Below the pieces are notes generated by a model. The model saw only the letters and a program-made list of their open reading frames with translations, made no database searches and was not told the DNA's origin. 64,000 nt of DNA from an uncultured Chloroflexia bacterium (GTDB lineage: Bacteria; Chloroflexota; Limnocylindria; Limnocylindrales; CSP1-4). The DNA is taken from NCBI GenBank assembly GCA_963780425.1, contig CAWABZ010000001.1, forward strand, positions 13,084 to 77,083. The letters are read 5' to 3'. The position numbers and the translations under genes were made by a program. Below are positions 24,627-52,823 of the stretch, one piece after another; the stretch's first letter is position 1, and each line of letters opens with the position of its first letter.

Positions 24627-24739
24627 GAACGGACCCCCTTGCGATAGACCGGTCCTCGACCGGGCGGGCCGAAGTATGGCGACGGCCCTCCGTGCGAACG
24701 ACCATCCGACGGTCCGGGGGTCGACCAGTACACTCGCCG

Positions 24740-25615
24740 GTGATGACGCAGAACGCCGAACGAGATGCCCCGCCGACGCGTCACATCACGACGCGGTCGA
24801 TCGTGGCCGTGCGGGGTTCGACGCTCGAGATCCGCGGGGACAGGGTCGTCGGGGAGGCACCGCTCGAGATCCGCGCGGCGGGCCCCGACCAGGATCCGGT
24901 CGCGGTCGCCGTCACGATGCGGACGCCCGGGCACGAGGCAGAGCTGGCAGTCGGCTTCCTGCGCACGGAGGGGCTGATCGACGGTCCCGAGGTCGTCGGC
25001 ACGGAAAGCGGCGATCCGGTCACGCTCAACCAGCCGGATGACACGATCGTCGTGCGCCTGTCCACCCCGTTCGACGACTCGGCCGTGGCGGAGCGCCATT
25101 TCGTCGCGACCGCCTCGTGCGGGATCTGCGGCAAGGCGTCGATCGACGAGGTCGTACTGCGCTGCGAGGTCCTGCCGGAGGGGCCGGTCGTGCCACGGTC
25201 CGTGGTGATCGCCCTGCCCGACCTGCTTCGCGCCGCCCAGAAGGCGTTCGATGAAACGGGCGGGCTCCACGCTGCGGCGCTGTTCTCGCCGCGCGGCGAG
25301 TTGATCGCCATCCGCGAGGACGTCGGCCGGCACAACGCTCTCGACAAGCTCGTCGGGTCGCAGGTCTTCGCGGGTGCGCTCCCGCTGCACGACAGGATCC
25401 TGATGGTCTCGGGTCGGGTCAGCTTCGAGATCGTCCAGAAGGCCGCGGTCGCGGGCGTGCCGATCGTCGCGGCGGTGTCGGCGCCATCGGATCTGGCGGT
25501 CGAGACCGCGGAGCGTCTCGGTGTGACGCTCGTCGGGTTCCTGCGCGGGGACCGGTTCAACGTCTACAGCCACGACCGCCGGATCGACCTGCGCGACCTG
25601 ACGGGCTGGGGCTGA
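24740..25615 (+). CDS. fdhD: Formate dehydrogenase accessory sulfurtransferase
   Basis: MRTPGHEAELAVGFL, SCGICGK, TGGLHAAALF, REDVGRHNALDK, SGRVSFEIVQKA; TACACT -10 just upstream. Confidence 0.93.
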   Translation: MMTQNAERDAPPTRHITTRSIVAVRGSTLEIRGDRVVGEAPLEIRAAGPDQDPVAVAVTMRTPGHEAELAVGFLRTEGLIDGPEVVGTESGDPVTLNQPDDTIVVRLSTPFDDSAVAERHFVATASCGICGKASIDEVVLRCEVLPEGPVVPRSVVIALPDLLRAAQKAFDETGGLHAAALFSPRGELIAIREDVGRHNALDKLVGSQVFAGALPLHDRILMVSGRVSFEIVQKAAVAGVPIVAAVSAPSDLAVETAERLGVTLVGFLRGDRFNVYSHDRRIDLRDLTGWG

Positions 25616-25624
25616 CGGCACGTC

Positions 25625-25654
25625 CCCGCCCATGCCCAGCCCGCCCATGCCCAG
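25625..25654 (+). repeat. Two tandem copies of a 15-bp unit
   Basis: CCCGCCCATGCCCAG at 25625-25639 and 25640-25654. Confidence 0.8.
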
Positions 25655-25661
25655 CCAGACG

Positions 25662-25807
25662 GGTGTGCCTCTCAGACTGCAGACGGTGCTCGAAGGAGGG
25701 CTGGGGTGCGCCCCGAAGGCCCATGCGTGCTTGCGGAAGCACAGCCCAGGGTCCAAGACAGACCCACGGGCATGCTCGAGGTCCGTTAGCAGTCTGGGAA
25801 GCACACC
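25662..25807 (+). ncRNA. Candidate structured RNA or long inverted-repeat element upstream of the HTH-nuclease gene
   Basis: 19-bp stem 25662-25680/25789-25807 with one mismatch and one G-U, extended by GACGG/CCGTT and CTCGA/TCGAG, plus internal hairpins. Confidence 0.5.
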
Positions 25808-25859
25808 TCGCGCTCCGAGCGATAACGGCCGGTTGAGCGCCTCGTGGTTCCATCACCTG

Positions 25860-26626
25860 ATGCAGCGCGACCTGCCTCGCGATCGCCTCATGCAGCGCGA
25901 GGTCCAGACCCGTCTCCGTCGACTCGAACGCAAGGTCGGCGACGACCTGTTGCGATTGCGAACGGACGCCGCTGCCACGAAAGCGCAGGTCGCACGCGCC
26001 GCGGGTGTCGACCGAACGTTCTACGGTCGTGTCGAATCTGGGGATGCCCATCCGAGCCTGAAATCGCTTACGGCGGTCGCAGCGGCACTCGGGGCAGAGG
26101 TTCTGTCCGTCTGTACGCGGGTAGTGGCCCTCGGCTCACCGATCGTCATCAGGCGCGGATGGTCGAGGCCGTCCTTGGTCAGCTTCATCATGTGTGGCGC
26201 CCGCATCTTGAGGTCGCCGTGAGCCGGCCGGTCAGGGGGGTCATCGACGCCGTGCTCGAACGTCGAGATGGGCCGCTGTTGGTGATCGGTGAGTTCGAGG
26301 CGGCCCTTCCGCGGCTTGAACAGCAGATCCGATGCGATGTCCGAGAAGGCCGCATCGATCGGGTCGAGTGACCTGGTCGGGCCGCGGCCCGATGCCTGCT
26401 GTGTCGAGGTTGTTGATCTTGCGCTCGACCGAATCGACGAGGTCGGTCGCTCATCGACTCGAGGCGACCCTCCGGGCGGCGTACCCGGCCTCCACGCGCA
26501 AGGCGATCGCCGCGCTGTGCACGGGGTCGCAGTGGCCAGGCAATGCGATCGTCTGGGTACGGATCGAGGGTGACCGGGTCGAACTGCTCGATGGCCCACC
26601 GAGAGGTGTCGCCCGTAGGGCGGTGA
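25860..26626 (+). CDS. XRE-type HTH fused to PD-(D/E)XK-like nuclease domain (about 4 frameshifts)
   Basis: KAQVARAAGVDRTFYGRVESGDAHPSL HTH, then LEVAVSRPVRGVIDAVL..LLVIGEFE; pieced from ORFs starting 25632, 25844, 26289 and 26332. Confidence 0.65.
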
Positions 26627-26629
26627 GAC

Positions 26630-27733
26630 CTAGGCCTTTCGGGCGCTCGTTCACGAATTCGAAGCCGAACCGGCCCTTGATGCAGAGGTGGCCGTCCGTG
26701 ATGGACGAGTCGAGAGGCGATGTGACCTTCAGGATGCGATCGTCCTGGACGTGCAGGTCGACGGCACAGCCCACGCCGCAATACGGGCAGATCGTCGATG
26801 TGACGGTCTGGGCGGACTCGTCCCAGGTGCCGGCCTCGCGCATGTCGTACTCGGGCTTGGCCATCAGCGCTCCGGTCGGGCACACGCCGATGCAGTTGCC
26901 GCAGTACACGCAGGCCGATTCGGGGAGCGGGACGGCCTGTTCGGTCGAGATCCGAGCGTCGAATCCGCGACCCGCCACCGCGATCGCGAACGTGTTCTGG
27001 GCATCCTCGCCACACGCCTCGACGCACTTGTAGCAGAGGATGCATTTCGCGTAGTCGCGCACGTAGAGGTCGTTGTCGATCTTCGTCGGCTGGCGCGACA
27101 GTCGCCGCGAAGGCCGCCTCCTCGCCGGTCGGCGCGTGGTGGTGCCCCGCCTCGTGCGTGTCGCGCTCGCCGGGTGCCGCCGGCGCCGCAGGCGCGCCGA
27201 ACCGTCCCGGATCGGCGCCGTACCGGTCCATGTACGCGTGGATCGTGCCGTCGGGCGCGGCGGGGCCCGCGAGCGAGACGTCGACCGACGAGCCGAGGAA
27301 CTCCAGCACGACCTTGCGCGACGTGCGGACGCGGTCCGAGTCGGTCTGGACCTCCATCCCCGGTTCGACCGGTCGCGAGCAAGCGGGGGCGAGCACGCGG
27401 GAACCCGTGACTTCGACGACGCAGACCCGACAGACGTTGACCGGCGTGAGGTTGTCGGCGTAGCACAGGGTCGGCGTGTCGATGCCGAGCACGCGGCACG
27501 CTCCCAGGATCGTCGTCCCGGCGGGCACCGTCACCGGTCGTCCATCGATCGTCAGCTCGACGGGCGGTGGCGCCGCGACCGGCGGTGGCGCCGGCGGCCT
27601 GGACGGGTCGGGCCGGCGGGCTCAGGACGATCTCGGTAAGCGGCTGTGCCGCCGGCGCCTGCCCGGCATGCGGCGAGTTCGGGTCCGGCGCAGGGTCGCG
27701 TGACATCGACAGCCCGGTCGTGTCCTCGCTCAT
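26630..27733 (-). CDS. FDH iron-sulfur subunit (2Fe-2S, two 4Fe-4S, and the Mo-bisPGD N-terminal 4Fe-4S motif); frameshifted; 3' end uncertain
   Basis: PTLC..VNVCRVC..ACS, CILCYKCVEAC, CVYCGNCIGVCP, TICPYCGVGC..HLCIKGRFG; given frame runs on to 26451. Confidence 0.85.
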
Positions 27734-29580
27734 AGCGCCACCAGATCGGGCTGGCGCAGCGCCGATTCGATCGCCGACGAGGCGGTCTGACCGAGCCCGC
27801 AGATCGACGCATCGCGCATGGCCTGCCCGACCTCACGCAACAGCGTGAGCTCCTCATCACGCGATCGGACGCGCGAGCCGGCCGCGAGGCGCGCCAGCAG
27901 TTCTTCCTGGCGCACGCTGCCCACGCGGCACGGCACGCACTGGCCGCACGACTCGTCGCGGAAGAAGCGGGCGATGCGCCGCAGCGTGTCGACGAGGTCG
28001 ACGGTCTCGTCGAACACCATGATCACGCCGGAGCCGAGCGTGGCGCCGGCCGCGCGGGTCGCCTCGAACGTCAGCGGCAAGTCGAGGGACGATCGGCCCG
28101 ACGAACACCCCGGCCGCACCGCCGAGCAGGATCGCCCGGATGGAGCGCCCGCCCGGGACGCCCCCCGCCATCGCGATCAGGTCGCCCAGCGTCGCCCCGA
28201 ACTCGACCTCGTAGACCCCGGGCCGCGCGACGTGCCCCGACAGGCAGAACAGCCGCGGGCCGGTCGAACCGTCCGTGCCGATCGCCGCGTACGCCTCACC
28301 GCCCATCTCGATGATCAGCGGGACGTTGACCAGGGTCTCGACGTTGTTCACGACGGTCGGCTTCCCGAACAGGCCGACCTCGACCGGGAACGGCGGCTTG
28401 TTGCGCGGCTCGCCGCGCTTGCCCTCGATCGACTCGAAGAGAGCGGTCTCCTCCCCGCAGATGTAGGCGCCGGCGCCGCGGCGCACCTCGATATCGAACG
28501 CGAAACCCGCGCCCAGGATGTCCGGCCCGAGCAGGTTCGCGCCACGTGCCGCACCGATCGCGCCGCGGATCGCGGCCTCGGCTTCCGGGTACTCGCCGCG
28601 GATGTAGATATAGCCCTGGCTGGCACCCGTGGCGAAGGCGCCGATCGTCATCGCCTCGACCACAGCGAAGGGGTCGCCCTCGAGCAGCACCCGATCCTTG
28701 AACGTGCCTGGCTCCGACTCGTCGGCGTTGCAGACGAAGTAATGCGGCTGCGCGGCCTGCGATGCCACGGCCGCCCACTTGCGACCCGTCGGGAAGGCGG
28801 CACCGCCGCGGCCCATCAGCTTGGACGCCGTGACCTCGGCGATGACCGCCTCGCTGCCCATCTCGATGGTCTTCGCCAACGCCGCGTACCCGCCGTGTGC
28901 CCGGTAGTCGTCGAGGGACGCCGGGTCGACCACGCCGACCCGCCGGAGCAGCCGCAGCGACGGATCGCCGGTTCTGCGGGACGGGCGGCGGCAAGCGGCG
29001 TGAGCTGCGCGCCGTCGAGACGCGCGACGATCCCCGCGGCGTCGATCGGGGCAGCGCTTGCGACGGTCGGGTGCTCGCCTGCCGTCGTGAGCATGGCCGC
29101 CGGCGCGAGGTCGCACAGCCCAAGGCAGGGCGAACGGTGCCAGCCGACTTGACCGTCGCGCGCCGCCGCCCCCTCCGGACCGACCGACCGGCCGAGGTCC
29201 TCGCAGATCCGCTCCGCCCCGGCCAGCCGGCAGGCGATGTCGTCGCAGACGTGGGCCATGATCGGCGGTCGCGGGGTCGTGGCATACAGCGCGTAGAACG
29301 TGGCGACGCCGTACGCCTCCGCGGGCGCGACCGCGAGGCGTCTCGAGATGTAGTTGAGGGCAGGCTGGCTGATCCAGCCGATCCGATCCTGGACGGCGTG
29401 GAGGGCCGGGAGCAGTTGGGACCGCCTCGCCCGCGTCTCGTGACCGCCGCGCGCGGCGTGGCCGTCGACACCGGGCCGCCGGGCGCCGCCCGTCCAACCG
29501 GATTCCGGCGGACCGAGGGCCGCGTCCACGGCGGCACGCTCGGCCGGGGAAGCCAGCGGCCCGATGACGTGCAGGTCCAT
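27730..29580 (-). CDS. NuoE-NuoF fusion: NAD/FMN-binding diaphorase subunit of FDH (frameshifts near 28975 and 28090)
   Basis: [74 protein letters not shown]. Confidence 0.9.
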
Positions 29581-29629
29581 CGCGCCGAGTGTAGCCCCGA
29601 GGCGACGATGCGGGCGTACGATGCGGGCC

Positions 29630-30205
29630 ATGCCGAAACGCCGCTGGATCCAGTTCAGCGTCGACTGGCTGGAATGGTCGCAGCGCAACCTCGTGGCTGC
29701 CGTCCGAGCGACCGATCCGGCCAACCTCCACCGGCGGCCGGGGCCGCGGGCGCCATCCATCGCCTTCCACGCCTGGCACATGGCACGCTGGGCCGATCGA
29801 TACCAGGCCACCCTGCCGACCTCGGCCGCGCCGACCGACGTCGATGGGTCCCGCGAGATCTGGATCCGAGACGATGTCGTCGGGCCGTGGGGCCTCCGCG
29901 ACATCAGCCTCGGTGACTTCGGCGGGACCGGTGCGGGCCTCGACGACGAAGCCTCAGCCGCGCTTCCGCTCCCAGACGCCTCGGCGTTGCTCGACTACAT
30001 GACCGCCACGTTTGGTGCATTCGAGGATCGCGTCCGTGCCATCGACGACGACGCCGTACTCGACATCGTCTATGTCGACCTGTATGGCGACGAGTCGACC
30101 ATCGCCGATTCGATCGCGAATGCCACGTCGCACGCGGATCGCCACCTCGGCATGATCGAGGCGCTCCGTGGTGTGCTCGGCGACCCCGAGACGGTGACGG
30201 TCTAG
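29630..30205 (+). CDS. DinB/YfiT family protein
   Basis: [17 protein letters not shown] metal-His pattern; TACGAT -10 seven nt upstream. Confidence 0.8.
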
Positions 30206-34778: not shown

Positions 34779-34875
34779 GGGAGCGGTCGGGTCCCGGTGG
34801 GTCCCCCGGTCTTCAAAACCGGTGACGCCGCGCTCGGCGTGGCGTGGTGGGTTCGACTCCCACGCGTTCCCGCCA
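34779..34875 (+). tRNA. selC: tRNA-Sec (anticodon UCA)
   Basis: CCGGT-CTTCAAA-ACCGG anticodon arm, long variable arm, GTGGG-TTCGACT-CCCAC T arm, G discriminator and encoded CCA; TACCAT -10 six nt upstream. Confidence 0.95.
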
Positions 34876-44987: not shown

Positions 44988-45302
44988 TTGGAACATCCCC
45001 ATGTTCCGTCGCGCACGTGAAGCGGGGTTTCGAGCCCCTTCCGGTGCGATCTGGAACGTCACCGCGTTCCGAACCGCGCCGGAAACCACGTCGCCCAGGT
45101 GCTTACGCTGAGTTCGTAACGTCGGGAGGTTCCACCGGCCTGCTTGGAACATCCCCATGTTCCAATCAGCGAAGGGCAGCGCCCTCGGCTCCGGCTCGAT
45201 CGCCCATTGGAACTCTATGGATGTTCCAAACGGCGAAGCAGCGCCCGATTCCGGCGGTCACTCCTTCGCTCAGCCTCTGATTGGAACCTCGTGATGTTCC
45301 AA
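44988..45302. repeat. Array of five interspaced palindromes TTGGAAC-N8/9-GTTCCAA
   Basis: Copies start at 44988, 45051, 45144, 45207 and 45281; gaps 41, 71, 41 and 51 nt; copies 1 and 3 share CTTGGAACATCCCCATGTTCC. Confidence 0.8.
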
Positions 45303-52141: not shown

Positions 52142-52328
52142 GTGCCCGAAGGGGCAGGTGCGAACCGCCAGACCGCACCGGGGAGTGATCCTCGGGACGG
52201 TCCCGGGAGCCGGGTTCGATGGTCGCAAGGCCGTCGAGCGAGGAACCCGGGCGGAGCGTAAGGACTCCGGACTTGTTCGGAGCCGTTACGAGACGACAGG
52301 TGGTCCTCCCACCAGTTCCTTCGGGCGC
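52142..52328 (+). ncRNA. 187-nt rod-like non-coding RNA candidate, possibly 6S RNA
   Basis: 5' GTGCCCGAAGG pairs with 3' CCTTCGGGCGC; imperfect helix continues to 52169/52299; central bubble; CCGGGTTC/GAACCCGG stem; GCAA tetraloop; TTTCG tail. Confidence 0.5.
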
Positions 52329-52681
52329 TTTCGTGTGCGCGGGAGCTCTCCGTCGCCCTCCGATGCGCCGCGAACGTGTTTCCTGGACTGCACAACCGGG
52401 CCGAAGCGATCTCGCCGTCGCTCCGCAGCGCCCGACCTTGTCTGTGAGGTACGGGATCTCGTCGCCGCGTCGGTCCGACCATGAACTACGCGGATGGCAG
52501 CGTCCTTAGGTCCGCAAGAGGTCGGTTAGACCTCGCTCTAGGCCCCTCCGACCAGCCATAAGGCCTCTCTGGATGCGCGATGTGCATGGTCGACGGCGCT
52601 GAAGGAGTCGATGGCGGCCCGGATCTCGACTTTGCGTCGCTGTGATGCGCGTATTTCATGGTTGGGGCGGGGATTTACGAC

Positions 52682-52750
52682 GCCGGGCGGGAGCTCGGGA
52701 GGCCGGGCGGGAGCTCGGGAGGCCGGGCGGGGATTCGGGCGGCCGGGCGG
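52682..52750 (+). repeat. About 3.5 copies of a 20-bp unit
   Basis: GGCCGGGCGGGAGCTCGGGA repeated, last copies degenerate. Confidence 0.8.
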
Positions 52751-52823
52751 CGGCAGTCTGCCAGGCACGCGTTCGACCGATCACCGTGTGCGCCGACACG
52801 CTCGGCACGTTAGCCTCGCGCCG

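Follow-up and report, generated by a model that had tools for sequence, protein, structure and literature searches.

The window, i.e. the whole 64,000-nt stretch of DNA analysed here, comes from a MAG of 3.6 Mb (19 contigs, 86% complete). The names of matched proteins and of related contigs assign it to Candidatus Limnocylindria (Chloroflexota). Around the element under study the gene order is lysA, a gene for a 229-aa membrane protein, fdhD, the element, a gene for a helix-turn-helix (HTH) protein, a convergent gene for an Fe-S subunit and a NuoF-like gene (table 1). In this MAG the HTH gene is broken by 1-nt indels near positions 26100, 26335, 26384 and 26610, and it is intact in contig L055. 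As L055 is 99% identical to the window, the indels in the HTH gene and its neighbours are probably errors of the assembly rather than signs of gene decay. Single-base indels were also seen at 26637, in the Fe-S gene (26188-27534) and in the NuoF-like gene (27730-29779), and the affected genes are intact in near-identical or related contigs. The possibility that a formate dehydrogenase gene had been truncated by an insert was rejected, the 366-aa Fe-S protein being the product of a normal gene in relatives.

Table 1. Features at the fdhD locus (window positions) and examples of a further palindrome family in the same genome (G000, contig and position).
Feature	Position	Strand	Evidence or remark
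fdhD, upstream neighbour	24692-25615	+	Pfam FdhD-NarQ 3e-65; element begins 46 nt past the stop codon
15-bp tandem duplication CCCGCCCATGCCCAG x2, perfect	25625-25654	+	7 nt upstream of the element
Element, assigned as a type A copy of the ~145-bp palindromic intergenic repeat family	25662-25807	.	fold z-scores on both strands; best match of covariance model R1, 120 bits
Left terminal inverted repeat GTGCCTC-TCA-GACTGCAG	25665-25682	+	conserved in every type A copy
Central palindrome GTGCTT-GCGG-AAGCAC, half-site as in the termini	25727-25742	.	81.5% paired across copies; 64 nt from each end
Right terminal inverted repeat, minus-strand reading GTGCTTC-CCA-GACTGCTA	25787-25804	-	
Short conserved spacer CGCGCTC..GCGATAAC.GC.GG, from element to gene start	25808-25832	+	found after both tandem copies in L056
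Partner gene, XRE-type HTH plus ~170-aa C-terminal domain	25833-26626	+	Pfam HTH_31 and HTH_3
Convergent Fe-S subunit gene, frameshifted in the MAG	26630-27534	-	Fer2_4, Fer4, Molybdop_Fe4S4; intact 366-aa orthologue in L056
CGCGACTG-N-CAGTCGCG family, examples	G000:C8:370434-370512, C8:411697-411775, C9:240083-240161, C11:131360-131500, C16:70050-70193		

The 146-nt element has a predicted minimum free energy (MFE) of -86.3 kcal/mol, compared with -59.3±4.0 kcal/mol for dinucleotide shuffles (z = -6.8), and none of 200 shuffles equalled this value. The strongly folded element that a first-pass annotation had described from the sequence is thus real and far beyond chance. Its closing helix, given there as about 29 pairs including G-U, was counted as 28 pairs (7+11+5+5), two of which are G-U, and the 32-nt arms are 81% complementary. 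Among the internal hairpins that had been proposed, GTGCTT-GCGG-AAGCAC and GGGTC-CAAGACA-GACCC are part of the MFE fold, whereas the GGGCTG/CAGCCC pairing is not, GGGCUGGGG..CCCC..GGCCC being used there instead. The minus strand gave -85.3 kcal/mol (z = -7.35), i.e. a fold equal to that of the plus strand.

The 15-bp tandem duplication ahead of the element was found as described. It is present in L055 and absent from L056 and L017, and is a local slippage that lies outside the repeat family; as a tandem repeat on one side only, it was rejected as a target-site duplication. In L055 one base of the central loop (25734) is missing, so that the true length of the element is probably 145 nt, the modal length of its family. 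The distance from the end of the element to the first ATG (25860) is 52 nt, in agreement with the earlier description, and that to a TTG at 25833 is 25 nt. The TTG is probably the start of the gene rather than the ATG, since the orthologues begin with MSAPWFHH. As the spacer between the element and this start is too short for a promoter, transcription of the HTH gene would begin inside or ahead of the element; a scan of the sequence for promoters and terminators found nothing.

In a BLAST search of the element against its own genome and relatives, the element was found once in its own genome, and otherwise only fragments of the arms were matched. Because the interiors are too diverged for BLAST, a covariance model (R1) was needed, and it was built from nine hand-collected copies. 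All nine are 144-146 nt long and have conserved ends, and their alignment is nearly gapless. Conservation is seen in the 5'-terminal GTGCTTC-N3-GACTGCAG and its complement at the 3' terminus, in the hairpin at the centre (GTGCYT-loop-ARGCAC) and in a small number of short words of the interior. With R1, about five copies (on contigs C1, C8, C5, C12 and C16) and one weak match were detected in the own genome. Within the genus, copies were present in 14 of 61 genomes, at 1 to ~12 loci each, and a search of 400 genomes of the family with the 3'-arm pattern gave only control-level matches outside the genus.

The orthologous locus in L056 (82% identical) carries two tandem copies between fdhD and the HTH gene, and in G021, a member of the same genus, one copy with a quite different interior occupies the syntenic place. 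No HTH gene was encountered within 1.5 kb of another five copies, which belong to G021, G260 and G391. Genes were called by a crude GC3-based method around 58 copies; roughly half of these copies follow a stop codon at a distance of 7-80 nt, and several are located between convergent genes. We consider, with a probability of about 0.7, that the element is one copy of a dispersed, palindromic non-coding DNA repeat which is recognised by a protein and resembles REPINs or MITEs, and not a dedicated RNA gene.

For an empty-site test, three copies of the own genome (on C12, C5 and C8) were compared, flanks included, with relatives. The copy on C12 is located in a 228-nt gap between two conserved genes; in 60 of 60 other genomes of the genus this gap measures only 2-60 nt and holds no copy. 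The C5 copy is absent from G344, where the flanks (93-94% identical) abut, and also from G021, G456 and G247. The C8 copy is common only to the own genome and G021. Its site is empty in G344 and G034 (gaps of 4 and 16 nt), and in G456 and G247 the copy is absent and unrelated spacers of 47-69 nt are found. Since all three copies are missing at the same sites in close relatives, the element is, judging from these genome comparisons, one that moves or gets inserted as DNA. The suggestion that it could be the end of a palindrome-associated mobile unit was therefore correct in that a mobile, insertion-polymorphic palindromic repeat is involved, and incorrect with respect to the word "end", the element being the whole unit.

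The inserted stretches (165-240 nt) are longer than the 145-nt core and have boundaries that are not clean. The C12, C5 and C8 loci yielded neither a clean target-site duplication nor a precise border of the insertion; at C5 only, TACTG occurs at both junctions and is a possible direct repeat. The gene downstream of the C12 insertion is preceded by a promoter-like stretch, TTGGCCGCCTATACTGGGCC (G000:C12:457030-457100), which is strongly conserved in all genomes of the genus.

A role as RNA had been proposed on the grounds that G-U wobbles favour an RNA or single-stranded DNA structure. Rfam searches of the element with gathering scores and with permissive thresholds gave no match, the best local matches (E 0.65-7, to miRNA models) being noise. 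The only Rfam match in the window at the gathering score was tRNA-Sec; the tRNA-Sec gene (34779-34871, 70.6 bits) fits a selenocysteine formate dehydrogenase locus. A G-U pair on one strand is an A-C mismatch on the other, so that an RNA is expected to have a per-element excess of one of the two kinds. Over 58 copies the sum of |GU-AC| was 88, compared with 85.1±8.7 expected (p = 0.41), and the overall G-U:A-C ratio of 123:83 reflects only the strand picked by the model. Without strand bias of this kind, the wobbles do not speak for RNA or single-stranded DNA.

Element interiors (24 nt trimmed from each end) had a mean z of -0.47 relative to shuffles, and 10% of them were below -2. When the MFE structure of the window copy was projected on the nine-copy alignment, 81% pairing was obtained for the closing helix and 81.5% for the central hairpin; the three other hairpins were 50-54% paired, compared with 34-45% in slid controls. 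Arm identity in a common register was 15.39 of 22 within elements and 14.95 between elements (p = 0.05). For the variable arm triplet the within-element agreement was exactly as expected, and an excess was observed only at arm positions 5 and 14, where the weak covariation may indicate some selection for pairing. The "stem" is accounted for almost entirely by the agreement of both arms with a single consensus, as in an inverted repeat recognised by a protein, rather than by a selected helix. The best-scoring strand was not constant relative to the adjacent HTH gene. Two known types of structured element were also rejected: for a retron msr-msd RNA there is no reverse transcriptase nearby, the neighbours being only fdhD, the HTH gene and the Fe-S gene, and for an integron attC site cassette arrays are lacking and the core sites are wrong.

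The relation between the repeat and the HTH gene was studied in the sample of 61 genomes of the genus. Repeat copies were present in all six genomes with an HTH homologue of at least 60% identity, versus 8 of the 55 genomes without one (hypergeometric p ~5e-5, a value that treats related, non-independent genomes as separate). Two of the eight genomes that have copies and no close homologue are very incomplete. In G453 the homologue at the same locus (C7:127036-127570) is in pieces, with stop codons, and no repeat copies were detectable. Copies lie on both sides of the HTH gene in five genomes, namely G031, G464, G010 (there around a 46% paralogue) and the two GTDB genomes L022 and L023, which came from a search for related loci. 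A copy is located downstream of the gene in G463, one copy upstream in the window and in G021, and two upstream in L056; weaker matches abut several paralogues of 40-50% identity. The first-pass annotation had proposed to compare the upstream regions of homologous HTH genes by means of a covariance model: comparable elements are indeed present at homologous genes, in many cases flanking them on either side, and the stem shows no real covariation.

All six carriers have a single homologue of at least 60% identity, which always sits between fdhD and the Fe-S gene. On account of this constant position the HTH gene looks vertically inherited and not itself mobile. The paralogue in G010 is at another locus, and this gene is likewise flanked on both sides. 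Across the genus the fdhD/Fe-S gap acts as a gene flux hotspot. At least 12 genomes have an empty gap of 6-44 nt, and inserts of ~250-760 nt occupy it in about 15 others, the five that were read out encoding small unrelated proteins; it measures ~1.2 kb, with the HTH gene, in six or seven genomes and 2-3 kb in a few.

Three types of repeat ends were distinguished. Type A (GTGCTTC..GACTGCAG) is found in G000 (the own genome), G021 and L056, and type B (GTGCCTG.CAGACAGCAC) in G031. Type C (GTCGACTG.CAGTCGAC) is found around the 46% paralogue of G010 and in all solo copies of that genome. The end type thus co-varies with the clade of the resident protein, and the sequence of the central palindrome changes together with the ends. 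The termini matched the centre of their own element at 11.9 of 16 positions, compared with 11.06±0.15 for the centres of other elements, and none of 2000 shuffles reached as high a value. Because the motif changes with the protein clade, it can be expected that the HTH protein recognises the terminal and central motif. The HTH protein may also mobilise the repeat. In the own genome, which is 86% complete, a search for the Y1/RAYT family (PF01797) gave no match while controls were matched, and a search of this incomplete genome for longer elements with type A ends on both sides found none.

The HTH protein has more than 1267 homologues, typically of 254-263 aa. By Pfam its N-terminal part is an XRE-family HTH domain (HTH_31, 32.1 bits, cut-off 27; HTH_3, 30.3 bits, cut-off 23), and this domain resembles C-proteins and ClgR-type regulators. 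For the C-terminal domain of ~170 aa, Pfam (even at E<=10), NCBIfam, PADLOC and PHROG searches gave no match, PADLOC and PHROGs matching the HTH only, and a profile search of the PDB with this domain gave no meaningful match either. An AF2 model based on 76 homologues (pLDDT 89) places a low-confidence linker at residues 98-103 after the HTH domain. The predicted C-terminal core consists of helix 105-116, strands 122-130, 136-144 and 149-156, helix 162-174 and strand 189-197, i.e. alpha-beta-beta-beta-alpha-beta, which in this AF2 prediction is the order of the core of restriction-type nucleases. E127, D139, R161, E163 and R167 are invariant, and almost the same is true of E112, E154 and K172; the canonical (D/E)xK position lacks a lysine. 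A Foldseek search of the full model against the PDB and BFVD returned HTH matches only and no nuclease fold, and the C-terminal domain modelled alone from 4 sequences had a pLDDT of 49.6. The designation of the product as a nuclease in the earlier annotation fits the predicted core and the invariant acidic residues and did not receive a confirming fold match; from the model, a nuclease function of the C-terminal domain is plausible.

The full-length copies of the repeat form three tight size groups, of 143-147, 154-156 and 165-166 nt, and no intermediate lengths occur. Where the centre was clear, the distances from centre to end were 64/64, 64/74, 74/64 and 72-74/72-74 nt. Each unit of ~145 bp has terminal inverted repeats of ~20 bp and three sites spaced ~62-64 bp apart, variants with 72-74 bp giving the 155- and 165-bp units, and the DNA between the sites varies freely. 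One turn of B-DNA is ~10 bp. The ~10-bp steps would keep the sites on one face of duplex DNA, and cooperative binding to the double strand would then be more likely than a fold of RNA or of a single strand; insertions of 10 nt passed on by descent could give the same appearance of helical phasing.

Three other palindrome families in the own genome show similarly phased spacings between neighbours. In the CGCGACTG-N-CAGTCGCG family neighbours are spaced by 60-62; this family is commoner than the repeat studied here and has the same three-site layout. The spacing in the TTGACCG-N-CGGTCAA family is mainly 62 and 72. Five palindromes of the latter family fill the 300 nt before the start of a 43%-identical paralogue of the HTH gene (region C18:10203-10652, gene C18:10653-11450), and similar sites occur at C9:137277 and C8:44426-44628; this paralogue seems, from the arrangement of the sites, to have a repeat type of its own. 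The TTGGAAC-N8/9-GTTCCAA family, observed over the whole own genome and among other places at 44988-45302 of the window, has spacings of mainly 63-64, 72-74, 82-84 and 91-93. At 52374-52772 of the window a left end similar to those of the studied family (GTGTTTCCTGGACTGCAC...) and a right end (GGCAGTCTGCCAGGCAC) are ~400 nt apart, with a sequence like the central hairpin (GTCTGTGAGGTAC) after the left end. This may be an element that was split or enlarged by an insert, and it adjoins a proposed "6S-like RNA" at 52142-52328.

A tentative mechanism can be formulated. The half-sites GTGCTT/AAGCAC would be the target of the HTH protein, probably as double-stranded DNA and with helical phasing, and the three sites of a unit would be bound cooperatively on the duplex. 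If the acidic residues are catalytic, the C-terminal domain would cut at the ends of the unit and in this way propagate or maintain the repeats. The copy ahead of the gene itself would probably double as an operator or leader, there being no room for a promoter after the element. In its full form the proposal states that an HTH-guided enzyme with a core of the restriction-endonuclease type propagates a new class of three-site palindromic DNA elements, phased by 62 + 10n bp, and that a partnership like that of REPs and RAYTs evolved independently, with an unrelated catalytic fold, in Limnocylindria. We consider the proposal in this full form possible, and less likely than not. The copy number of type A, 1-12 per genome, is low and unlike that of REPs.

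Three other explanations have to be weighed against a protein-recognised DNA repeat that the HTH protein propagates. A structured RNA, acting from the plus strand as a cis-regulatory leader or as an antitoxin or guide RNA with or on the HTH protein, would account for the very stable predicted fold and for the position of the copy 25 nt ahead of the likely start codon, probably within the mRNA leader, as well as for the upstream copies at orthologous genes. The reverse strand folds equally well, however, and neither an Rfam family nor a G-U strand asymmetry was found. The interior folds at chance level, its helices are not kept in other copies, and the arms show no covariation of the kind expected from a selected helix. 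The best-scoring strand relative to the gene also varies, and most copies follow unrelated genes and have no HTH gene within 1.5 kb. An RNA function, including the guide or antitoxin RNA suggested by the first-pass annotation, is accordingly regarded as very improbable.

The remaining two explanations accept that the element is DNA. According to the one, it is an ordinary MITE whose movement depends on an unrelated DDE-type transposase supplied in trans, and the HTH gene is only a frequent neighbour or an insertion hotspot; terminal inverted repeats, a length of ~145 bp, insertion polymorphism, patchy copy numbers, the possible TACTG direct repeat at the junctions of one locus and the variable gap between fdhD and the Fe-S gene across the genus all agree with this. 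A plain MITE would not need a central palindrome that repeats the terminal half-site, nor would a quantised length be expected of it. Moreover, the genome yielded no longer element that carries these ends, the end sequence changes with the clade of the adjacent protein, and at least six independent genomes have copies flanking the gene, which makes a MITE of this kind unlikely. According to the other, the repeat is a module of binding sites for a non-catalytic protein (a regulon operator, a nucleoid organiser or a silencer), with a C-terminal domain that only oligomerises and copies that spread by recombination. Three phased sites per unit with ~10-bp steps do point to binding or looping of double-stranded DNA, the HTH is like that of C-proteins and ClgR-type regulators, and the canonical catalytic lysine is missing. 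On the other hand, most copies follow the 3' end of a gene, in many cases with a convergent gene on the other side, rather than occupying promoters; for whole units to be inserted anew at unrelated sites, DNA has to be cut and joined, and acidic residues on the core strands are invariant. A purely binding protein is thus also unlikely, if slightly less so than a transposase-borne MITE. The preferred reading therefore remains a palindromic DNA repeat with the HTH protein as its partner.

To our knowledge, the spread and persistence of short palindromic repeats in bacteria are understood for only one type of enzyme, the Y1/HUH RAYTs, and no published description of such repeats in Limnocylindria was found in the literature. 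If the proposed partnership is true, it would be a second, unrelated one between a protein and a repeat, in an abundant uncultured soil lineage, indicating that this lifestyle evolved more than once. It would also provide a new sequence-specific DNA-binding and possibly DNA-cutting module, the recognition sites of which can be read from the repeats. In addition, very stable, GC-rich, "RNA-like" folds upstream of genes in such genomes can be inverted-repeat DNA elements.

Several known systems are similar to the one described here. Bacterial MITEs (the Correia elements of Neisseria, ERIC/IRU and RUP) are intergenic elements of 100-160 bp with terminal inverted repeats, which are insertion-polymorphic and can be co-transcribed with their neighbours. 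The repeat studied here shares with them its size, terminal inverted repeats, intergenic location and insertion polymorphism. It differs in that no parent insertion sequence with the same ends and no clear target-site duplication were found, in that the gene next to it, with which its ends co-vary, does not encode a transposase, and in that the terminal half-site recurs in an internal palindrome.

C proteins and XRE repressors (C.AhdI, C.BclI, C.Esp1396I and ClgR) match the N-terminal domain of the partner protein in fold. The central GTGCTT-N4-AAGCAC also has the form of a dimer operator, and the copy close to the gene may serve autoregulation. Unlike the sites of these regulators, those described here occur genome-wide as 145-bp modules, and the protein has an additional conserved domain of ~170 aa.

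The closest parallel is with REP and REPIN repeats and the genes for RAYTs (REP-associated tyrosine transposases), which together are reportedly known as "REPtrons", a term said to be that of Bertels and Rainey from 2011. REPINs are extragenic palindromes with inverted ends and a spacer that differs from copy to copy; the RAYT gene occurs once, is inherited vertically and has repeats at its flanks, and there is one repeat type per partner clade (PMC3337134). The same holds for the present repeats, which are extragenic palindromes with inverted ends and copy-specific spacers, and for the partner gene, which is single-copy, apparently vertical and flanked by repeats of a type that corresponds to its clade. 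In contrast to the Y1/HUH enzymes, the partner here is an XRE-HTH protein with a domain that is without a Pfam match and has a predicted core like that of restriction enzymes. The unit is longer (145 bp), with a third, central site and spacings that change in 10-bp steps. Its spacer is without sign of selected folding, and it is present at 1 to ~12 loci per genome rather than at tens to hundreds.
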